Shown: positions 2,425-12,772, numbered from the stretch's first letter. The stretch: DNA of 12,772 nt from Promethearchaeia archaeon (GCA_029856105.1 JAHQWH010000233.1:1-12772); one strand, 5' to 3'. Translations and numbers: made by a program. The notes: generated from the sequence alone by a model not told the origin.

Positions 2425-4137
2425 TTATTTTCTCAGGCTTTTTTTATCAACTTTACCAACTGTAGTCAGTGGTAGTTCTTCAGTAAATTCGATTATTTTA
2501 GGGACTTCGTAAGGCGAACACATTTCCTTAGCAAATTTTGTTATATCCTCTCTCAATGCGTCTTCGTTTCCATCAAATTCATAACTCGGATCAATCTGGA
2601 TGAACGCTTTAACAATTTCAGATCCAGGACGATCGGGATTGGGTAAACCAATTGTAGCTACCATTCCAATAGCTGGATGTTTAGTCAAAGTGTCTTCCAA
2701 TTTAGCTGAAAATACTTTAAATCCTCCAACAATTATCATGTCTTTTGTACGATCGACTATTCGAATATAACCGTCCTCGTCCATAATTCCTACATCGCCA
2801 GTATGCATGTATCCATCTTTATCAATCGCTTTATTCGTTTCTTCGGGCTTGTTATAATATCCTTTCATTACCAAGGGTCCTTTTACACATATTTCTCCAG
2901 GTTCGTCTAGGGGGACTTCTTTATCAGTTTCAGGATCCACGATTTTGAGTTCTACATTTAAAAATGGTATACCAATAGTGCCTAATTTTTTTAACCCTAA
3001 CGAAGGATTCATTGTCGATACGGGAGAGGTCTCCGTCATACCGTAGAGTTCTAATAGTTTTCCTTTTCCAATAATACTTTCTAATTCTTCTTGAGATTCC
3101 TTTGGAAATGGAGCTGCAGCAGAAACACATGTTCCTAATTCTGAATGATCTATCTCTTTAAATTTTGGATTATTTATTAAAAGTTGATATAAAGAGGGTA
3201 CATTAACCAAGTTTGTTGGACGATATTTTTTCATGGCTTTAATCATATGGTTAGTATCACGAGGGTTAGGAATCAATATTTGGCTAAACCCCGAAGCTAC
3301 AGCTGCTTCAGTAACGGTTAATCCAGCAATATGAAACATTGGAAAGCCTGAACACAATACACCTTCTCCCCTTTTCCATTGAAGCCAAGATATAATGCAT
3401 TTTTGGTTTGAAACGCAATTTCTATGACTTAACATCGCTCCTTTTGGCGGTCCTGTAGTTCCACCAGTGTATTGAATCCATCCAATATCATCAGGAGTTA
3501 CTTTAGCATCAACAGGATCTGCAGAATAATTCGCTATAAGTTCCTTATGAAAATCAATAATTTTTATTCCTTCTAAAGGAGTTACCTTACCTTTTGGGAC
3601 TTTTCCTAACGCTTTACCTAGAACTTGCTTGATCTTTGGCAAAAAGCCGGCTACACTTGTAGTTAGTATTAATTTCAATTGTGGTATCTTTGAAGCAATT
3701 TTGACTATATGACCCGCAAATATCGCATCTAACGTCACTAAACCGACTTGCTTACCGCCTGTACCTAAATCGTTGAGTTGATATTGGATTTGAACCGCTG
3801 AAAGTAGCGGTGATACTCCAGATACAATACAACCTGCTCTCAATGTTCCCATTACGGTTATCATATATTCTGGTGTATTAGGTAGGCATATACCCACCAC
3901 ATCTCCTTTTTTAAATCCGTTTTCGATTAACATGTTTGCAAATTGATTCGCATAATTATCTAATTCTTTGAAAGTAACCTCTACTCCTAAAAATTCTAAC
4001 GCCATTTTATCAGCATATTCTACAAACGCGTCTTCACACATTTCAACGAACGTCATATTAAATTCTTTAGGATCAATATCTTCCAATCCAGAATCCCAGT
4101 TTTTCTTCCAAAATCTTGAACTATAAGGGCTTGACAT
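2425..4137 (-). CDS. long-chain fatty acid--CoA ligase / AMP-forming acyl-CoA synthetase (FadD-like), paralog 1
   Basis: QYTGGTTGPPKG, YGMTETSP, HTGDVG, DRTKDMIIVGGFKV, PLTTVGKVDK. ATG 4137 is preferred over TTG 4152 because MSSPY matches paralog 3 and the promoter spacing. Confidence 0.93.
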   Translation of the reverse strand: MSSPYSSRFWKKNWDSGLEDIDPKEFNMTFVEMCEDAFVEYADKMALEFLGVEVTFKELDNYANQFANMLIENGFKKGDVVGICLPNTPEYMITVMGTLRAGCIVSGVSPLLSAVQIQYQLNDLGTGGKQVGLVTLDAIFAGHIVKIASKIPQLKLILTTSVAGFLPKIKQVLGKALGKVPKGKVTPLEGIKIIDFHKELIANYSADPVDAKVTPDDIGWIQYTGGTTGPPKGAMLSHRNCVSNQKCIISWLQWKRGEGVLCSGFPMFHIAGLTVTEAAVASGFSQILIPNPRDTNHMIKAMKKYRPTNLVNVPSLYQLLINNPKFKEIDHSELGTCVSAAAPFPKESQEELESIIGKGKLLELYGMTETSPVSTMNPSLGLKKLGTIGIPFLNVELKIVDPETDKEVPLDEPGEICVKGPLVMKGYYNKPEETNKAIDKDGYMHTGDVGIMDEDGYIRIVDRTKDMIIVGGFKVFSAKLEDTLTKHPAIGMVATIGLPNPDRPGSEIVKAFIQIDPSYEFDGNEDALREDITKFAKEMCSPYEVPKIIEFTEELPLTTVGKVDKKSLRK

Positions 4138-4173
4138 TTTAATTTCACTCAAATAATTTCTTTTTTTCTTTAA

Positions 4174-4218
4174 AAAAATTGTTACTAAATAGTATTGATT
4201 CTTTTAAATATAAAGTTT
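4174..4218 (-). promoter_or_regulatory. BRE/TATA promoter, copy 1
   Basis: Minus strand AAACTTTATA (4209-4218), N9, ATCAA (4195-4199), then TAACAATTTTT (4174-4184); same layout upstream of all three ligases. Confidence 0.75.
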
Positions 4219-4264
4219 TAACTTTCTAAATCTTATTAAGATTCCTTTTAAAAGTGTATTATAG

Positions 4265-4287
4265 AAAAAAAAAAAATAAAAAAAATT
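4265..4287 (-). terminator. oligo-U terminator after ligase paralog 2
   Basis: Long A run on + (T run on the minus strand) directly after the stop codon, as in archaeal intrinsic terminators. Confidence 0.55.
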
Positions 4288-4288
4288 A

Positions 4289-5995
4289 TTACTTACGGAG
4301 AGATTTCTTATCGACCTTACCAACAACAGTCAGCGGTAGTTCTTTTACAATTTCAATTATTTTAGGAACTTCGTAAGGCGAACAGTTTTCTTTGGCAAAT
4401 GCTGTAATATCTTTCTTTAAAGCTTCCTCATTTCCATCGTAGTTATATTCAAGATCTAATTGTATAAACGCTTTAACGATTTCAGAACCTGGTCTTTCAG
4501 GGTTATCTACCCCTACAGTGGCAACCATTCCTATAGCAGGATGCTTCGTTAAGGAGTCTTCTAATTTGGCTGAAAAGACTTTGAATCCACCAACAATTAT
4601 CATATCTTTAGTTCTATCAACGATTTTCATATATCCATCTTCATCCATTACTCCTACATCTCCAGTATGCATAAAACCATCAGAGTCAATCGCTTTTTTT
4701 GTTTCCTCTGGTTTATTGTAATATCCTTTCATTACCATTGGTCCTTTTACGCAAATTTCTCCGGGTTCTCCTACAGGTACTTCCTTGCCCGTATTTGGAT
4801 CTACTAATTTTAATTCCAGATTGTTTAGAGGAAGACCTATACTTCCTAATTTTTTAACTCCTTTCGATGGATTACTTGCCGAGAGTGGAGATGTTTCAGT
4901 CATCCCATAAGCTTCTATTAATTTACCTTTCCCTACTATTGTTTCGAATTCTTTTTGAGATTCTTTTGGAAACGGTGCTGCTGCAGAAACGCAATACTTT
5001 AATTGCGAATGGTCCAACTCTTTAAACTTTGGATTTTTCATCAAAATCTGATATAAAGAAGGCACATTTGCTAAGACCGTTGGATTGTATTTAACCAATT
5101 CTTTTATAATGTGATCTGAATCACGTGGGTTTGGTATCAAAATCTGACTCCAACCCAGATAGACTACATTAAGGGTAGTAAAAGTTCCTGCGATATGGAA
5201 AAATGGAAACCCTGAAAGAGCTACACCTTCCCCTGGTTCCCAATTAAGCCATTTCTGATATATAACTATGTCAGAAACGATATTCTTATGGGTTAACATT
5301 GCTCCTTTTGGCGGTCCTGTAGTTCCACCCGTATATTGAATAAATGCAAAATCATCGGCGGTTATTTTTACGGTTGGTAATTCTTTTGAATAAGTGGGTA
5401 AGAGATCTTTATGGAAATCAATTATTGTTATTCCTTCTAAGGGAGTAACTTTTCCCTTAGGAATCTTACCAATTAATTTACCCAATACTTGTTTTATTTT
5501 CGGCAGGTAGCCTCCTACGCTAGTAGTTATTACTAATTTTAATTGTGGTAATTTTGAAACTATTTTAACTAATCTACCAGCAAAGATAGCATCTAAAGTT
5601 AATAACCCTACTTTATTTCCTCCTGTACCTAAATCATTCAATTGATATTGCATTTGAATATCTGAAAGAAGAGGTGAAACACCCGAAACAATACAGCCCG
5701 CCTTCAAAGTACCAATAACGCCTATTAAGTATTCAGGAGTATTTGGTAAATTTATACCGACTACATCACCTTTTTTAAAACCGTTTTCAATTAACATATT
5801 GGCGAATTGGCTTGAAGCCTCGTCTAAATCTCTATAGGTTAAAGTTATTCCTAAATAATCAAAAGCCATCTTTTCTGGAAATTCTTCCATAGTTCTTCGA
5901 ATGGCCTCGGGATAAGTTGTATTAAATTCATTAGGATCTAAATCTTTTACATAATCATCCCAGGATTTTTTCCAGAATTTATCTTTATACGACAT
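4289..5995 (-). CDS. long-chain fatty acid--CoA ligase (FadD-like), paralog 2
   Basis: Same AMP-binding motifs (QYTGGTTGPPKG, AYGMTETSP, PLTVVGKVDK). Start at ATG 5995 (MSYKDKFW) or ATG 6004; promoter spacing favours 5995. Confidence 0.93.
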   Translation of the reverse strand: MSYKDKFWKKSWDDYVKDLDPNEFNTTYPEAIRRTMEEFPEKMAFDYLGITLTYRDLDEASSQFANMLIENGFKKGDVVGINLPNTPEYLIGVIGTLKAGCIVSGVSPLLSDIQMQYQLNDLGTGGNKVGLLTLDAIFAGRLVKIVSKLPQLKLVITTSVGGYLPKIKQVLGKLIGKIPKGKVTPLEGITIIDFHKDLLPTYSKELPTVKITADDFAFIQYTGGTTGPPKGAMLTHKNIVSDIVIYQKWLNWEPGEGVALSGFPFFHIAGTFTTLNVVYLGWSQILIPNPRDSDHIIKELVKYNPTVLANVPSLYQILMKNPKFKELDHSQLKYCVSAAAPFPKESQKEFETIVGKGKLIEAYGMTETSPLSASNPSKGVKKLGSIGLPLNNLELKLVDPNTGKEVPVGEPGEICVKGPMVMKGYYNKPEETKKAIDSDGFMHTGDVGVMDEDGYMKIVDRTKDMIIVGGFKVFSAKLEDSLTKHPAIGMVATVGVDNPERPGSEIVKAFIQLDLEYNYDGNEEALKKDITAFAKENCSPYEVPKIIEIVKELPLTVVGKVDKKSLRK

Positions 5996-6034
5996 ATTTC
6001 TCATCTATTTCATATTATTTGTTTTTTATTTCGA

Positions 6035-6078
6035 AAAAATTGTTATAATTGTATTTGATGCATTATATTATAAAGTTT
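6035..6078 (-). promoter_or_regulatory. BRE/TATA promoter, copy 2
   Basis: AAACTTTATA (6069-6078), N9, ATCAA (6055-6059), TAACAATTTTT (6035-6045) on the minus strand. Confidence 0.75.
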
Positions 6079-6220
6079 AATTTTTTAGATATTTCATTTC
6101 GCAATTTTAGTAATTTCTAACAAATTCGTTCTCTTCTCTTCTTAGAACTCTTTTTAAATAAGTAGTTTATAAAATCGTAATTAATGACGAATAAAAATGA
6201 GAATAAGAAAAAAATGGATT

Positions 6221-7936
6221 TTATTGTTTCCTTAGAACTTTCTTATCGATTTTACCTATTACAGTTAGTGGTAATTCTTTAGCAAATTCGATTATTTTTG
6301 GGACTTCATATGGAGCACAATTCTCCTTAGCAAAAGCTGTAATATCCTCCTTTAATGCTTCCTCGTTTCCATCGTATTCAAAATCAGGATTTAATTGGAT
6401 GTGTGCCTTAACAATTTCCGAACCGGGACGATCAGGGTTAGGTAATCCAATTAAGGCGATCATTCCAATTGCAGGATGCTTGGCTAAAACATCTTCGATC
6501 TTTGCCGAAAATACTTTGAATCCACCGACAATGATCATATCTTTTGTACGATCGACAATTCGGACATAACCATCTTCGTCCATTATTCCTACATCGCCAC
6601 TGTGCATATACCCGTCTGAATCTATTGCATTTTTGGTTTCTTCAGGTTTATTGTAATAACCCTGCATTACTAATGGTCCTTTTACACAGATTTCCCCAGG
6701 TTCTCCTAATGGAACTTCCTTACCGGTTTCTGGATCGACAAGTTTTAATTCAACATTTAAGATAGGCATTCCCGCAGTACCCAATTTTTTCTCCCCCATA
6801 GAAGGGTTCATTGTTGCCACAGGTGATAATTCTGTCATTCCATAGAGCTCTAACAATTTTCCTTTACCCACTATGCTTTCTAATGCTTCTTGAGATTCTT
6901 TTGGAAATGGGGCTGCTGCAGAGATGCACGATACTACATTTGAGTGATCTAACCTTTTGAACTTTTTAAAATTAATCAGAATCTGGTATAGCGAAGGAAC
7001 ATTTACTAAAACGGTTGGTTTATATTTTTTCATCTCATTACAAATACCTAAAGCGTCTCTGGGGTTAGCTATAAGTATTTGCCCCCAACCAAATAATAAA
7101 GCTGATTCAGAAACTGTTAATCCCGCAATATGAAACATTGGAAATCCTGAACATAACATGCCTTTGCCCACTTCCCATTGAAGCCAAGATTTAATACTTA
7201 ACATAACTGAAGCACAGTTTCTATGACTCAACATCGCACCTTTAGGAGGGCCGGTTGTACCACCAGTATATTGAATCCAACCAATATCATCCGGAGATAT
7301 ATCAACTTTAGGTAGATCAGTAGAATATTTTGCCAAAACATCATCTTGGAAATGAAGGACGGTTTTTCCCTCTAATGGTGTGATTTCACCCGAGGGGATC
7401 TCCCTTACTGCTTTAATTTTTGCTTGATCCTCTTTAGAAAACGAACCAATTACGCTTGTTACTATTACTACTTTAAGTTGAGGTAATTTATCGGCAATTT
7501 TCTTTAACCTATGTTCAAAAATTGCATCAAGAGTGACTAATGCAACATTTTTCCCTCCTGTTCCAAGATCTTCTATTTGATAGTGCATTTGGACATCAGA
7601 CATTAGAGGGCTAACACCTGAAACAATGCATCCAGCTTTAAGCGTGCCTATAACTGAATATATATATTCTGGTGAATTCGGTAAATTTATCCCCACTGCA
7701 TCTCCCTTTTTATATCCATTTTCAATCAACATGTTAGCAAATTGATTAGAATACCGATCGACTTCACGATAAGTAATTTCTATACCTTGAAAAGCTAACG
7801 CCATATTATCAGGATAGTTTTCGAATATACTTCTTAGCATTTCAGGATAAGTAGTTTCAAATTCTTTTGGGTCAAGATCTGTTAGACCTGGATCCCAATT
7901 TTTTCGCCAAAATCTACTTTCGTACGGACTTGACAT
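6221..7936 (-). CDS. long-chain fatty acid--CoA ligase (FadD-like), paralog 3
   Basis: QYTGGTTGPPKG, LYGMTELSP, HSGDVG, PLTVIGKIDK. Confidence 0.93.
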   Translation of the reverse strand: MSSPYESRFWRKNWDPGLTDLDPKEFETTYPEMLRSIFENYPDNMALAFQGIEITYREVDRYSNQFANMLIENGYKKGDAVGINLPNSPEYIYSVIGTLKAGCIVSGVSPLMSDVQMHYQIEDLGTGGKNVALVTLDAIFEHRLKKIADKLPQLKVVIVTSVIGSFSKEDQAKIKAVREIPSGEITPLEGKTVLHFQDDVLAKYSTDLPKVDISPDDIGWIQYTGGTTGPPKGAMLSHRNCASVMLSIKSWLQWEVGKGMLCSGFPMFHIAGLTVSESALLFGWGQILIANPRDALGICNEMKKYKPTVLVNVPSLYQILINFKKFKRLDHSNVVSCISAAAPFPKESQEALESIVGKGKLLELYGMTELSPVATMNPSMGEKKLGTAGMPILNVELKLVDPETGKEVPLGEPGEICVKGPLVMQGYYNKPEETKNAIDSDGYMHSGDVGIMDEDGYVRIVDRTKDMIIVGGFKVFSAKIEDVLAKHPAIGMIALIGLPNPDRPGSEIVKAHIQLNPDFEYDGNEEALKEDITAFAKENCAPYEVPKIIEFAKELPLTVIGKIDKKVLRKQ

Positions 7937-8238: not shown

Positions 8239-8271
8239 TTTATATACCTCATATACATATTTCAGAAAATT
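8239..8271 (+). promoter_or_regulatory. TATA box plus putative operator ATATTTCAGAAAATT upstream of the RadA-like gene
   Basis: TTTATATA at 8239-8246; 15-mer at 8257-8271 matches 10633-10647 at 12/15 positions and sits at almost the same distance from the ATG. Confidence 0.45.
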
Positions 8272-8317
8272 GTCGGAGTAACCCACTTTTATTTTGAGGG
8301 ATTCTTCGGTTTAAGTA

Positions 8318-9076
8318 ATGTCGTTTAATTCGGGGTTTAATTTTTATAGAAAAAACAAGAGAATTCCTTTAGTTTCGAGCGGAGATTCAACGCTAGACGA
8401 GTTATTGGGAGGAGCTGGCTTTCATAAAAACTTAGTTTATCTACTTTATGGCGATAAGAAAAAACTTGCGAACATTCTATTGACCACTGCGGTTATCGCT
8501 CAAAAATCTTTTAACAATGGAGGTTTAGGAGAAGAAATAAAAGTTGCTTTCATTGACGCAAATAACCGCTTTAACCCATATAACGTAAGCAAGTTTGCAG
8601 TTTCCCAAAATTTATTCCCTCGGAAAGTATTAGAGAACATTCTTATTGCCCGCGCGTTTACTTGGGATCAAATGGTAGAGCTTTTAGAAAATCGCCTCTC
8701 TAAGCTTGAGCATGTCAAAGTTGTTTTAATTTCTGGTATTACTACATTGTTTCAGAGTTACGAAAAGCAGATGTTTGAGGATTTACTGAGAGCTATTAAC
8801 GGGATTAAAACGATTCTCTCTAAAACAAGACCACTCATCGTTCTAACTGCCCCCCTAAACGAATATTCTCTCTATAGACCTAATGGCGGAAAAATTCTCT
8901 CCCACTTCGGAAGTGCATTAGCATTGATAAACGAAGACGAGCGATATACAGAATATGTTCTAGTTCAACATCCTTTTTTGCCAGAAAACCGCCTTTTAAA
9001 ATGGAAGCCACGTGCTCCAAAAAAGAACTTAGCAAAGTCAATGAAAAATATGACGTTGGATTGCTGGTTTTCCTAA
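8318..9076 (+). CDS. inactivated RadA/RecA-fold ATPase (PolB2-associated type) with C-terminal PIP-box-like motif
   Basis: RadA-like SSGDSTLDELLGGAGF, VAFIDANNRFNPY, VLENILIARAFTWDQM; Walker A eroded (LYGDKKKLAN), Walker B Asp lost (VVLISG); no N-terminal HhH domain; ends NMTLDCWFS. Confidence 0.85.
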   Translation: MSFNSGFNFYRKNKRIPLVSSGDSTLDELLGGAGFHKNLVYLLYGDKKKLANILLTTAVIAQKSFNNGGLGEEIKVAFIDANNRFNPYNVSKFAVSQNLFPRKVLENILIARAFTWDQMVELLENRLSKLEHVKVVLISGITTLFQSYEKQMFEDLLRAINGIKTILSKTRPLIVLTAPLNEYSLYRPNGGKILSHFGSALALINEDERYTEYVLVQHPFLPENRLLKWKPRAPKKNLAKSMKNMTLDCWFS

Positions 9077-9102
9077 AAATCGAAGATTAAACGATAGTTC
9101 TA

Positions 9103-9507
9103 TTATTTCTTTTTGTATAAATTTGGATTCTTTTTTTCAAGAGTCAAAGGATCGCCACCAAATTGAATTTTTCGTCCTTTATAATAAAGGTCTGATTTCT
9201 TCTCACAAATTTCATTCCACTTAACAATGCCATGCTTCTTTATCATAAGCAAGTTGTAAATTTTTGAATTGTGAGGTAAGAAAATTTCAAAATTTACGAT
9301 CGGCTGTAATTTCTCGCAAGGAAAATCTTCACATTCGTAGCAGAATTTATATCCCTTGCTCGTTACGCATTCAAACGTTTTACATACAGGGAAATCTTTT
9401 ATTTGACCATTCTGCTCCCGGCAACCTTTACACTTATAAACCTTTACTCCCGGGCATCTTTTACAATATATCCCACAAGGGGCGTGCTCCTTTAAATATA
9501 CACTCAT
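9103..9507 (-). CDS. Cys-rich metal-binding protein, DUF3795-like
   Basis: APCGIYCKRC, CKGCR, CKTFEC, FCYECEDFPCEKL pattern. Start uncertain (TTG 9543, ATG 9528 or ATG 9507); ATG 9507 has an SD-like AGGT upstream. Confidence 0.75.
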   Translation of the reverse strand: MSVYLKEHAPCGIYCKRCPGVKVYKCKGCREQNGQIKDFPVCKTFECVTSKGYKFCYECEDFPCEKLQPIVNFEIFLPHNSKIYNLLMIKKHGIVKWNEICEKKSDLYYKGRKIQFGGDPLTLEKKNPNLYKKK

Positions 9508-9555
9508 ATAACAATACCTATTACTCATTTTATTTTTTATCAAAAATAATTTTAT

Positions 9556-10527
9556 TTATTTTATCCCTAAAAGCCTAGCAGCATTTTCGTAGAGCCATTT
9601 TCTTTTAACTTCTTCTTTAAGAGGTAAGTCCATAACGCCATCAGCTAATTGTTTTATTGACATTCCCATAAAAAGCCAAGTTGATCCAAATAGAACTTTA
9701 TCTTGAAGAACTGAATTACCGAAATGAATAAGTTGCTCCCATCCCGTTCCTTTCATACCTATATACTTAGGAATGTAAGATGCAATATCGATATATATGT
9801 TAGGATTTCGCCAAGCAACAGCTACTAATTCGTTTACCCAAGGCCATCCGCCATGTCCCGCAATAATCTTCAATTCAGGAAAATCCTGAGCGACAATATC
9901 TAAGTAGATTGGTCTTTCAACCTCCATATTATTAGTGGAATAATTTATAGAAAGGTGAAACCAAATAGGGATGTCAAGTTCCACGCATGTGGAATAAATT
10001 GGATACATTTTCGCATGATGGGGCGGTATTCCAAACATAAACGGTCTAACAGCTACGCCTCTAAGTCCTAAATCGTAAGATCTTCTTATCTCTCTTACGG
10101 CTTTCATTCGTTTTAAAGGATCAATGCCTGCAAATCCTACGAATTTGTCAGGGTGTTTTTTAACAATATCGGCATAATAGTCGTTTGGAAGCCCAGCAAT
10201 GCCACTCGGCGTTTCTTCGTCAAGATTAAAAATAACAGCTTTTTCAACGCCCATCGTGTCGAGCAGTTTGACAAATTCATCTGTAGTTGACGTCATTTTT
10301 TTTATATTTGGCAAAAAAGGTTTAATCGCATTTCTGAGTTCAGCTGTATTCATTGTTGTTTTCATAACATAAAGTTCTTCTGCCGTTATCCCAAGTAGAG
10401 GAGCAACTCGTGGACCAAAAATATCTTGAAGATATCTAGCCATCTGAGGAGGTAACGACACTAAAAGATCGATAAAGACTTCTTCAGTTGGCACATAACA
10501 AAGGGAATCAATTATCTTATATTTCAT
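9556..10527 (-). CDS. amidohydrolase_2 family TIM-barrel protein with atypical active site
   Basis: PDKFVGFAGIDP, PIWFH, FPELKIIAGHGGWPW, NIYIDIAS, KVLFGSTW, WLYENAARLLG. Confidence 0.88.
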   Translation of the reverse strand: MKYKIIDSLCYVPTEEVFIDLLVSLPPQMARYLQDIFGPRVAPLLGITAEELYVMKTTMNTAELRNAIKPFLPNIKKMTSTTDEFVKLLDTMGVEKAVIFNLDEETPSGIAGLPNDYYADIVKKHPDKFVGFAGIDPLKRMKAVREIRRSYDLGLRGVAVRPFMFGIPPHHAKMYPIYSTCVELDIPIWFHLSINYSTNNMEVERPIYLDIVAQDFPELKIIAGHGGWPWVNELVAVAWRNPNIYIDIASYIPKYIGMKGTGWEQLIHFGNSVLQDKVLFGSTWLFMGMSIKQLADGVMDLPLKEEVKRKWLYENAARLLGIK

Positions 10528-10561
10528 ATTTCATCCAATAATTAAATTTTCATTATAATCT

Positions 10562-10647
10562 TAGAACGTTAATGTTCTATATATTGTTTTTTCGATAGAA
10601 AATTAGAAAATTTTCTAAGTATATTTTTTTTAATGTTTCAGAAGACT
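10562..10647. promoter_or_regulatory. divergent promoter region with two palindromes and the shared TTTCAGAA motif
   Basis: TAGAACgttaatGTTCTA (10562-10579), perfect TTAGAAAATTTTCTAA (10603-10618), ATGTTTCAGAAGACT (10633-10647). Confidence 0.5.
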
Positions 10648-10694
10648 ACCCTTCTGGGTTTGCTTGAAAAACTAAAAAGAAAGTTGAAGTAAAT

Positions 10695-10970
10695 ATGTGT
10701 GGTAGAACAGTACCAAGCTTTCGTCCTGCGCTTGAACACGAGATCGAAAGCTGGAAGGACTATAAAAGAGCGCTTAGGCCAGAAGATCAAAAAATATTTG
10801 ATAAATTAATGAACTTTGCGAGAATTCATGCCGATGCTGGCAGTTTAAGCGCTCGCCCTATGCTTTCAGAAATTCTTTTCATTTCGTTTGCGATTGAGCA
10901 AGAAAAGAAAATTGGGTTGTTGGAAAAAAAGATTATCAAAATAGAGGAAATAATTAAGGGAAAAGAGTAG
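10695..10970 (+). CDS. small alpha-helical PolB2-associated protein (arCOG07300-like)
   Basis: GRTVPSFR...WKDYKRALRPEDQKIFDKLM...ARIHADAG...EQEKKI resembles the small protein found next to archaeal polB2; ends 3 bp before the polymerase start. Confidence 0.8.
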   Translation: MCGRTVPSFRPALEHEIESWKDYKRALRPEDQKIFDKLMNFARIHADAGSLSARPMLSEILFISFAIEQEKKIGLLEKKIIKIEEIIKGKE

Positions 10971-10973
10971 AAG

Positions 10974-12772
10974 TTGGACTCACAGAATGTTTTTGACGGG
11001 TGGCTTTTAGATGTATCTACTTTTAGCGAAGGAGTTATCCTTTGGGTAAAAACCTCAAAAGAGCAGAAGGTAATAAAAATATACCAAGAATTCTGCCCTG
11101 AATTTTTTGCAGTGCCCAGAAATGAATTCGGTAACGACTTAAAGAGATCGAAATATATCCTTACTCAAAATCTAAATGTAAAAGAGGTGCGGATCTGTGA
11201 AAAGTATGCAAAACTGGAAGATCACGAAAAAACGAAAGTTCTTGGTGTCACTGTAACGAAACCCTCGGTATTTAAGAAAACAATAAAAGAAGTTGATAGA
11301 ATAGGACTTTTTATCTTGCATAATACGGATCTTCCGATTACTCAGATGTATTTCTACGTCAATGACATATTCCCTATGTCTTTCTGTCGTTTCAAAGTTA
11401 AAATTGAAAAGGGCAAAGATCAGAGAAGTAATATTTTACGCCTTATTTCTCTAGATTTACAAGATGACAACGAAAAGTTATTCTACGATTTGCCCCCACT
11501 AAAAGCCGTTTGGTTAGATGTAAAAATTCAGTACCAAGGGATAAGACCATATTATAACGATCCCATTTCTCATGCTGAAATCAGTATTGTTGAAAACGAC
11601 GAGAGCAATGTTCCACGAGCAGATGGATACATAAAACGAAAAATATTGATCGATAAAGCAGACGAAGCGGAAACCTTGAAGAGCATAAGCAAAGTAATCG
11701 AACATCTCGATCCTGATATAATTCTTACCCAAAATGGGGACGAATTTCTCCTTCCGTATTTAGTTACTCGGGCTTCAGAGAATCGAGTAACAAAAGATCT
11801 TTACCTTTCTCGGGATAAAAAGCCATTGGTGAACTGTCTTTTCGATCTTTCCGGTGGTTCAGATCATTATATGTCTTATGGTATAATAAGACGGCGTTCA
11901 AAGACTCAAGTCTATTTAACTGGCAGATTTCATTTGGACACAACAACATACGCCAGTCTCCATTTTACGGAAGGAAATATTCCAGGCGTTATTGAAGTCG
12001 CCCGTATATCGCGAATCTCGCTCCAAAGATTAAGCCGCATAACTATTGGAGGGGCACTCCAGTCGATTCAATTTTATAACGCTTATAAACTTGACCATTT
12101 AATTCCTCCATTCAAGAAAAATCCGGAAGGGTTCAATACTGGAATGGATCTAATTAGAAGCGATCGTGGAGGCCACATATTCGAACCGATCATTGGAGTT
12201 TTTGATCAAGTGGTGGAACTAGACTTTTCTTCTATGTATCCTTCTTTAATGGCAAACTTTAATATTTCTTCGGAAACCATTAATTGCAAGTGTTGTAAAG
12301 ACGACGGTACAGGTGTAAAAGTTCCAGGATTGGACTTTCATATTTGTTCAAAAAGACAAGGAATCATATCGAAATCAATAAGTCTGCCTTTATCAAAAAG
12401 ATTAAAGTACAAAGAGTATGTCCGCAAAACTGGGAACCTCCGCTATAAATTCACTGACATTGCTCTAAAATGGGTACTCGTAGTCAGTTTCGGGTATTTA
12501 GGGTTTAAAAATGCTCGTTTCGGAAAGATCGAAGCTCATCAAACGGTTTGTGCCTTTGCTCGTGAATTCCTTATGCGCTCTGCGGAGATAGCAGAAGAAT
12601 ATGGCTGCAAAATTATTCACGGTATTGTGGATTCTGTTTGGCTTAAAGACACAAAAAGTAGGACTCCCGAGGAGTTCGAAGTAGTAACTAAAAAAATTGC
12701 CGAAAAAATAACTGAACAAGTGGGTATTCCAATGAGCTGGGACGGAAGGTACAATTTTATCGTTTTTCTTCC
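10974..12772 (+). CDS. polB2: family B DNA polymerase, archaeal PolB2 group (3'-truncated by the window, at least 599 codons)
   Basis: Hand translation from TTG 10974 (MDSQNVFDGWLLDV...) shows no stop to the window end. Motifs: DRGGHIFEP, motif A ELDFSSMYPS (Asp codon 12222), motif B LKWVLVVSFGYLG (Lys codon 12468), motif C HGIVDSVW (from 12618); degenerate Exo motifs. Confidence 0.93.
   Translation, partial: MDSQNVFDGWLLDVSTFSEGVILWVKTSKEQKVIKIYQEFCPEFFAVPRNEFGNDLKRSKYILTQNLNVKEVRICEKYAKLEDHEKTKVLGVTVTKPSVFKKTIKEVDRIGLFILHNTDLPITQMYFYVNDIFPMSFCRFKVKIEKGKDQRSNILRLISLDLQDDNEKLFYDLPPLKAVWLDVKIQYQGIRPYYNDPISHAEISIVENDESNVPRADGYIKRKILIDKADEAETLKSISKVIEHLDPDIILTQNGDEFLLPYLVTRASENRVTKDLYLSRDKKPLVNCLFDLSGGSDHYMSYGIIRRRSKTQVYLTGRFHLDTTTYASLHFTEGNIPGVIEVARISRISLQRLSRITIGGALQSIQFYNAYKLDHLIPPFKKNPEGFNTGMDLIRSDRGGHIFEPIIGVFDQVVELDFSSMYPSLMANFNISSETINCKCCKDDGTGVKVPGLDFHICSKRQGIISKSISLPLSKRLKYKEYVRKTGNLRYKFTDIALKWVLVVSFGYLGFKNARFGKIEAHQTVCAFAREFLMRSAEIAEEYGCKIIHGIVDSVWLKDTKSRTPEEFEVVTKKIAEKITEQVGIPMSWDGRYNFIVFL

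Follow-up and report, generated by a model that had tools for sequence, protein, structure and literature searches.

A probable PolB2-PPB2-iRadA damage-tolerance mutasome encoded in two separate units in a Promethearchaeota genome

In archaeal genomes, linkage of the gene for the B-family DNA polymerase PolB2 with a small gene of arCOG07300 and a gene for an inactivated RadA was reported by Makarova, Krupovic & Koonin (2014, PMC4104785), who proposed that the products form a complex. Timinskas, Timinskas & Venclovas (2025, PMC11791011) named the two accessory proteins PPB2 and iRadA, modelled a PolB2:PPB2(3):iRadA pentamer, called it a mutasome and compared it with Pol V. Here we describe a locus of this kind in a contig of 12,772 nucleotides from a Promethearchaeia archaeon (GCA_029856105.1, JAHQWH010000233.1), which is contig C233 of an assembly of 3.66 Mb in 238 contigs and is referred to below, at its full length, as the window. 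We consider it likely that region 8318-12772 of the window encodes the Promethearchaeota (Loki-type Asgard) version of the PolB2-PPB2-iRadA damage-tolerance mutasome.

The 2025 paper described several hallmarks of the complex: an MGRT arm, a D(K/R) motif, clamp-binding motifs that occur mostly in iRadA, and a loop of PolB2 that touches iRadA in a Rad51-like manner. Its survey also lists interspersed operon forms, and its supplement lists and models operons of Lokiarchaeota and Heimdallarchaeota, including a Lokiarchaeota PCNA:iRadA pair (PMC11791011). As for activity, Sulfolobus Dpo2 was found to be damage-inducible, required for targeted mutagenesis and exonuclease-free, and it extends mismatches and lesions; the alignment in that work included a Thorarchaeota PolB2 (Feng 2020, 2022; PMC7390963, PMC8764526). 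A preliminary description of the window, made from the sequence, had noted both the clustering of polB2 with a small gene and a diverged RadA-like gene and the induction and mutagenicity of Sulfolobales Dpo2, in agreement with these reports. It had also stated that no Asgard complex of this type was known to be characterised. With respect to experiments this holds (PMC13324097), but the Asgard operons modelled in 2025 show that the novelty was overstated on the in silico side.

The module as such was already published, Asgard examples included (2014, 2025), and the lineage-specific points are the split arrangement, the MCGRT arm, the dual PIP-like (PCNA-interacting peptide-like) tails and, possibly, a promoter box common to both units. 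Judged by sequence, phylogeny and conserved synteny, the iRadA, PPB2 and PolB2 of the window are orthologues of the three published components. The locus agrees with the published mutasome in its three protein families, their defining motifs, the order iRadA...PPB2-PolB2, the predicted iRadA-binding loop and the PIP motif of iRadA. On the other hand, iRadA is split off by one or two opposite-strand genes, a form that the 2025 paper calls rare but that is conserved here over several genera; the PPB2 arm starts with MCGRT; and in the present family iRadA and PolB2 both end in PIP-like motifs, again rare according to the paper.

Open reading frame (ORF) calls and Pfam searches place five genes in region 8318-12772, three on the plus strand and two on the minus strand (Table 1). 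The three plus-strand ORFs of the preliminary description were all present, and the TTG start of PolB2 lies, as it had claimed, 3 nt past the PPB2 stop codon TAG. The description had left unmentioned the intervening minus-strand DUF3795 and amidohydrolase genes as well as the truncation of PolB2 at the contig end. The nearest named relatives, with polymerase identity up to 97%, are metagenome-assembled genomes (MAGs) of Promethearchaeota, in line with its Asgard label.

An alignment of iRadA with the RadA of the same genome revealed changes in both Walker motifs. Walker A, GEYRTGKT in RadA, is GDKKKL in iRadA, while Walker B changes from VVDS to LISG with the loss of its Asp, which bears out the earlier view of an ATPase-dead RecA-fold protein. 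The N-terminal helical domain is wholly absent, and the start of the protein coincides with that of the core in the RadA of this genome. We regard iRadA as a dead copy because a short RadA paralogue on contig C16 retains both GKT and the Walker B Asp; among the RadA-paralogue matches of the genome, iRadA is the sole ATPase-dead one.

The PPB2 sequence, which opens with MCGRTVPSFRPALE, matched no Pfam or NCBIfam family. Its AlphaFold2 model (mean predicted local distance difference test score, pLDDT, 86) has an unstructured arm at residues 1-8 and predicted helices at 9-26, 29-50 and 57-90, the last of them long, so that the protein is predicted to be helical, as had been suggested. The arm MCGRTVPSFR is the MGRT arm with an extra Cys after Met, a variant also seen in 5 other loci. 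We found the MGRTxxxFR arm conserved in 31 aligned PPB2 homologues, with G3, R4 and R10 (window numbering) invariant. A hidden Markov model built from Asgard PPB2 copies matched small genes upstream of haloarchaeal PolB2 with E-values of 2e-23 and 8e-17. In a structure search with the PPB2 model nothing rose above the background of helical proteins (top Z 5.2); for example, the match to SigR 1h3l, at rank 22, had a Z of 4.4 and a root-mean-square deviation of 3.6 over 65 residues, within that background.

The PolB2 fragment contains the Pfam domains DNA_pol_B and DNA_pol_B_exo1. In NCBIfam it scored best, at about 220 bits, with NF004418 and NF004416, two models named 'type B DNA-directed DNA polymerase'; the best 'polymerase I' model gave 122 bits. 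The expectation of a polymerase without proofreading was upheld: ExoI is changed from LDIE to LDV- with the loss of Glu, ExoII from FD to FL with the loss of Asp, and ExoIII is deleted. Motif A is intact (DFSSMYPS, residues 417-424). In motif C, HGIVDS (549-554) stands in place of YGDTDS, so that the first Asp of DxD is lost and IVD remains, and motif B is altered to KWVLVVSFGY from KxxxNSxYG. The stretch from motif B to motif C is close to that of the Lokiarchaeota PolB2 in the 2025 supplement (…KWILVVSFGYLGF…HGIVDSMWL, IVD; PMC11791011). Members of the PolB2 clade share the DRGG motif (D397-R398) and the loop LIPPFKKNPEGFNTGMDL before it, neither of which the other PolBs have. According to the alignment and to the complex model described below, the D(K/R) motif lies at D397-R398 and not at LSRDK near residue 280, which was considered first.

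The changes in motifs B and C could mean that the polymerase is catalytically inactive and that the module, instead of synthesising DNA, serves in a structural or regulatory capacity at forks or origins. Inactivation of PolB2, together with a link to ORC-type genes, was indeed proposed in 2014 (PMC4104785). However, the Dpo2 proteins of S. islandicus and S. solfataricus, which likewise have no first Asp in motif C, are robust polymerases and efficient mismatch extenders (PMC8764526); D417 of motif A and D553, the second Asp of motif C, are invariant in 25 aligned Asgard PolB2s; and no Orc1/Cdc6 gene lies within the window. We therefore consider an inactive polymerase unlikely, and the activity of the window's PolB2 is inferred from Sulfolobus Dpo2. 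The two proteins belong to the same PolB group, have no exonuclease motifs and have the first Asp of motif C replaced (IID in Dpo2, IVD here). Dpo2 is shorter and crenarchaeal, and its damage induction, mutagenesis and extension of mismatches and lesions were shown by experiment, whereas the Asgard protein is known from sequence.

A cluster of Cys residues follows motif A of PolB2 (12282-12347): N437-C438-x-C440-C441 ... H456-x-C458. It is invariant in the 25 Asgard PolB2s, and at the corresponding place in the other PolB of the genome there are just two Cys. The cluster could be a metal site.

In the PolB tree, the Asgard PolBs linked to PPB2 formed a clade that also includes two PolBs of haloarchaeal plasmids, each preceded by a PPB2 gene, with a support of 100 in the Shimodaira-Hasegawa-like approximate likelihood ratio test (SH-aLRT). 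This clade lies apart from the type of the genome's own 852-aa PolB and from two further Asgard PolB groups; the tree contained no named Sulfolobus Dpo1/2/3 (PolB1/B2/B3) anchors. Clustering with replicative PolBs, which the preliminary description had named as evidence against a PolB2 complex, was thus not seen with respect to the genome's other PolB. There is no solved PolB2 structure, and the best structure match was a Thermococcales PolB (E 4e-43).

A B-family polymerase could also belong to a mobile element or a virus, since such polymerases are common in archaeal mobile elements and the haloarchaeal homologues found here are plasmid-borne. Such an origin appears extremely improbable for the present locus. 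The flanking genes are housekeeping ones (proteasome alpha subunit, Sir2, acyl-CoA ligases), and the order of the locus is conserved in many genomes of the family; no integrase, terminal repeat or composition shift was found at the locus; and the polymerase tree largely tracks the family and genus groupings.

We modelled PolB2(1-599) with one PPB2 and iRadA, along with three controls. The predicted contact between iRadA and PolB2 had an ipSAE of 0.72, compared to 0.14 for the best of the three controls; in the benchmark of this score, 58 of 80 solved complexes reached the mark, as did 2 of 110 mismatched pairs. The runs agreed in at least 84% of contacts, with partner pLDDT of at least 77. In the model, PolB2 residues 380-394, the loop just before DRGG, lie on iRadA residues 77-130, and F387 occupies the FxxA-like position, where the sister genus g4 has FKTA. 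An interaction between the partners, one of the checks suggested earlier, was thus predicted, and the model supports iRadA-PolB2 binding without demonstrating it.

With respect to the sliding clamp, the iRadA C-terminus NMTLDCWF is kept throughout the family and resembles the tail QVSLDNFF of the genome's own FEN1, which ends QVSLDNFFK. The PolB2 proteins of relatives at 95-97% identity end in QKDLLCF or QKDLSCYIE. We observed that both iRadA and PolB2 fit the PIP pattern in 21 of the 27 family genomes with both ends available, and that 5 more of the 27 have xxTLDCW[FL] in iRadA. Since such motifs rarely occur on both proteins according to the 2025 paper, we take the dual PIP-like tails as a lineage trait. 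The genome encodes one PCNA and one Y-family polymerase, which fits a scheme of an inserter plus an extender on a homotrimeric clamp. The earlier idea of a damage-tolerance complex on PCNA is supported in this respect, with docking backed by the PIP-like sequences of the tails.

Copies of the iRadA tail were also seen elsewhere. An 87-aa ORF on contig C143 (G000:C143, L008:1372-1635, +) has an N-terminal zinc ribbon (CxxC...CxxC), and its last 44 residues copy the iRadA tail with 45% identity to iRadA 208-251, including a PIP-like NMTLDNWF. In the relatives L043 and L048, ORFs of 48-49 aa between iRadA and DUF3795 are likewise copies of the tail.

A possible mechanism can be outlined as follows. 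In the model, iRadA would dock on the FxxA-like PolB2 loop in the way RadA subunits bind one another, and the PPB2 arm would sit beside this contact. If Sulfolobus Dpo2 and the in silico work of 2025 are a guide, the complex may act as a proofreading-free extender polymerase, continuing synthesis once a Y-family polymerase has placed a base across from a lesion. It could be held on the single PCNA by the PIP-like tails of iRadA and, as in close relatives, of PolB2, and it might be switched on after DNA damage, perhaps via the box seemingly common to both promoters.

The gene order in relatives was informative. The phylum sample of 201 genomes contained 103 with PPB2, the corresponding figure for the family was 34 out of 40, and PPB2 and PolB2 were adjacent in nearly all of the 60 loci fetched. 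Most genera of the family have the order iRadA(+), DUF3795(-), sometimes amidohydrolase(-), PPB2(+), PolB2(+), with iRadA 0.6-5 kb upstream of PPB2-PolB2 in most members. Contiguous iRadA-PPB2-PolB2 genes occur in the sister genus g4 and in families f2, f13, f19, f21 and f22, while in genus g3 iRadA lies downstream of PPB2-PolB2 on the opposite strand. The 80 named Promethearchaeota loci showed the same span of arrangements. Co-occurrence in relatives had been set beforehand as a refuting test in the preliminary description, and we found the trio to be kept together in these genomes. The DUF3795 and amidohydrolase genes are read as passengers because they are absent from the contiguous forms. 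Judging from the conserved gene order, the module was split by an old insertion of the minus-strand DUF3795 gene, with or without the amidohydrolase gene.

At the present locus, the iRadA gene lies 1.6 kb upstream of PPB2 on the common strand. Because two minus-strand genes separate iRadA from PPB2-PolB2, the trio makes up two transcription units and not one operon. Judging from the 3-nt gap, PPB2 and PolB2 are translationally coupled, and iRadA is a separate unit.

This separation, and the promoter that the RadA-like gene has of its own, might suggest that 8318-9076 encodes an independent, RadB/aRadC-like paralogue of RadA whose one tie to PPB2-PolB2 is its nearby position, and that only the last two genes cooperate; the genome has several other RadA paralogues, and in family f7 an iRadA-like gene is unlinked. 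We hold this to be very unlikely. The gene is the one ATPase-dead paralogue found, its counterpart on C16 keeping GKT and the Walker B Asp; its orthologue is contiguous with PPB2-PolB2 in the sister genus and in other families and lies within a few kb of them across the family; and the complex model placed it at the published interface, well above the controls.

Two families show further arrangements. In family f12 (L088, L091-L093) PPB2 does not adjoin PolB2: a polymerase match lies 7-9 kb off on the opposite strand in L088, L091 and L092, and the fetched stretch of L093 had no polymerase match. Family f14 (L140, L141) has a PolB2-clade polymerase (motif C AGLTDS) between two iRadA-like ORFs, with a weak PPB2-like match.

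Conserved elements were found 5' of both units. The core of the iRadA element is near-invariant upstream of iRadA in 25 relatives, with variable flanks, and the PPB2-PolB2 element is conserved in about 28 relatives, its core TTAGAAAATTTTCTAA being a 16-nt palindrome at the present locus. The two boxes have AGAAAATT in common, followed by GTA six bases on and then by a T-rich tract. When position weight matrices (PWMs) built from each promoter were used to look for the other, that promoter came 15th and 17th of about 7.3 million positions, and with such ranks we treat the shared box as no more than suggestive. A 38-nt PWM scored the two window sites at 45.6 and 31.3, compared to 22.4 for the next match in the genome and at most 19.7 for a reversed-sequence control.

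No wider regulon emerged from PWM scans of the genome, the next matches being inside ORFs or before unrelated genes. A loose box pattern was not enriched (68 matches versus 104 in the control), the 8-nt core was equally common in coding and non-coding DNA, and the box was not seen in other Asgard families. Co-regulation of the iRadA and PPB2-PolB2 units is plausible from the promoter sequences but not established, and the likeness of GAAAAT/ATTTTC to the Sulfolobus damage element ANTTTC is only a lead.

Similar promoter sequences were noticed at other loci of the genome. The promoters of the Walker-intact 265-aa RadA paralogue (G000:C16, L004, 1450-2247 -) and of the 87-aa zinc-ribbon gene on C143 share GTTTTTCTGAAT immediately 5' of a TATA-like box; this sequence is the inverted form of the promoter box of the window. 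A further gene, which encodes a RadA-like protein of 422 aa (G000:C96, L007, 982-2250 +), has a promoter (TTGAAAAATTCGAAGTCTATTTTCTTTAAAA) that closely resembles the PPB2 promoters of relatives. It is possible that the RadA-paralogue, zinc-ribbon and mutasome promoters make up a small repair regulon.

One may go further and suppose that the mutasome of this family is wired unlike the published norm, with PIP tails on PolB2 and iRadA giving a two-point attachment to homotrimeric PCNA, and with two units under a common, partly palindromic AGAAAATTTTCT-like box, perhaps part of a small Asgard DNA-damage regulon reaching RadA paralogues. We offer this tentatively and regard it as rather doubtful.

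Several points weigh against reading the locus as a mutasome of the published type. First, iRadA is, on the layout of the genes, not co-transcribed with PPB2-PolB2 here, and linkage is not obligatory, because in family f7 (L146-L148; G128, G075, G103) an iRadA-like gene that has lost Walker A and carries the PIP-like tail xTLPLSYFL lies about 220-230 kb from PPB2-PolB2. Second, the likeness of the two promoter boxes is modest, with a core that is not enriched between genes. Third, the polymerase has an altered motif B and lacks the first Asp of motif C. Fourth, PolB2 is cut by the contig end, with about 200 C-terminal residues missing; relatives at 95-97% identity have a PolB2 of 800-802 aa. 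The missing part was not found on the genome's other contigs, where there was one weak match, to the other PolB, and because of the truncation the protein's own C-terminal tail and thumb are unseen. Fifth, the complex model contained one PPB2 chain where a trimer is proposed, and it was built with self-made alignments. Finally, according to a 2026 review (PMC13324097), the PolB2 complex awaits an experimental test in any organism. With these points taken into account, the PolB2-PPB2-iRadA mutasome is still the reading that we consider likely.

Table 1. Genes, predicted binding sites and promoter elements at the mutasome locus (positions in the window).
Feature	Position	Strand	Description
iRadA promoter element	8260-8297	+	TTTCAGAAAATTGTCGGAGTA, then T-rich TATA-like tract; ~54 nt 5' of ATG
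iRadA	8318-9076	+	252 aa; RadA/Rad51 core, ATPase-dead, without N-terminal helical domain; Pfam Rad51 E 1.5e-14
iRadA PIP-like PCNA-binding tail NMTLDCWF	9047-9070	+	residues 244-251
DUF3795 gene	9103-9543	-	Pfam DUF3795 E 3e-11; probably passenger, outside module
Amidohydro_2 gene	9556-10527	-	Pfam Amidohydro_2 E 1.7e-35; passenger, present in only some related loci
PPB2-PolB2 promoter element	10601-10638	+	AATTAGAAAATTTTCTAAGTA, then T-rich tract; core TTAGAAAATTTTCTAA
PPB2 (arCOG07300 family)	10695-10970	+	91 aa; helical; arm MCGRTVPSFR
PolB2	10974-12772	+	TTG start; residues 1-599 of about 800, encoded by 10974-12770; 3'-open at contig end
Predicted iRadA-binding loop and DRGG	12111-12167	+	PolB2 residues 380-394 (FxxA-like F387-N-T-G), then D397-R398

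The locus can also be compared with better-known translesion systems. E. coli Pol V (UmuD'2C-RecA-ATP) is analogous in combining a translesion polymerase with small accessory subunits, a RecA-family protein and attachment to the sliding clamp, but it uses a Y-family polymerase, relies on an active RecA monomer from a filament where the archaeal complex has a dedicated dead paralogue, and has no PPB2 homologue; the two are not homologous as systems. The bacterial ImuA-ImuB-DnaE2 cassette, named as an analogue in the preliminary description, is similar in that it is damage-inducible and joins a RecA-fold accessory protein to an error-prone polymerase. Its polymerase, however, is of the C family, its clamp adaptor is the inactive Y-family ImuB, and it has no homology to PPB2/PolB2. 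Both systems are marked by a Y- or C-family polymerase with UmuD' or ImuB, and the polymerase found here is of the B family. Pol zeta (Rev3-Rev7 with Pol31/Pol32) shares with PolB2 the B family, the absence of proofreading, the part of an extender after an inserter polymerase and the association with the clamp, whereas its accessory subunits are a HORMA protein and Pol delta subunits, and the present analysis does not show it to descend from PolB2.

No prokaryotes are more closely related to eukaryotes than the Asgard archaea. An extender polymerase of the B family that has a dead recombinase as its adaptor on PCNA would be the nearest prokaryotic analogue of Pol zeta-type bypass. The family offers clean test material, with a single PCNA, a single Y-family polymerase, dual PIP-like tails and a defined FxxA-like contact loop. 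The two separate promoters with conserved boxes are also a possible handle on the regulator of an Asgard DNA-damage response.

Beside the iRadA-like gene of family f7 we observed a small zinc-ribbon gene, a GcvH-like gene and a gene for a 380-aa AAA+ ATPase (Pfam AAA_22), which may be Orc1/Cdc6-like.

In the rest of the window, positions 23-2326 hold side by side the genes for a proteasome alpha subunit, a Ras-family small GTPase and a Sir2 deacetylase; Ras-family small GTPases are typical of Asgard genomes. Positions 2425-7936 (-) hold three tandem paralogous AMP-binding (acyl-CoA ligase-like) genes of 570-575 aa, the copy number of which differs among relatives. The Promethearchaeota locus was also found at 84% and 76% identity in contigs L157 (DATKTW010000160.1) and L218 (DATKYM010000073.1), which are labelled 'Candidatus Nanopelagicaceae bacterium' and 'Nitrosopumilaceae archaeon', respectively; these odd taxon labels are probably due to MAG binning error.

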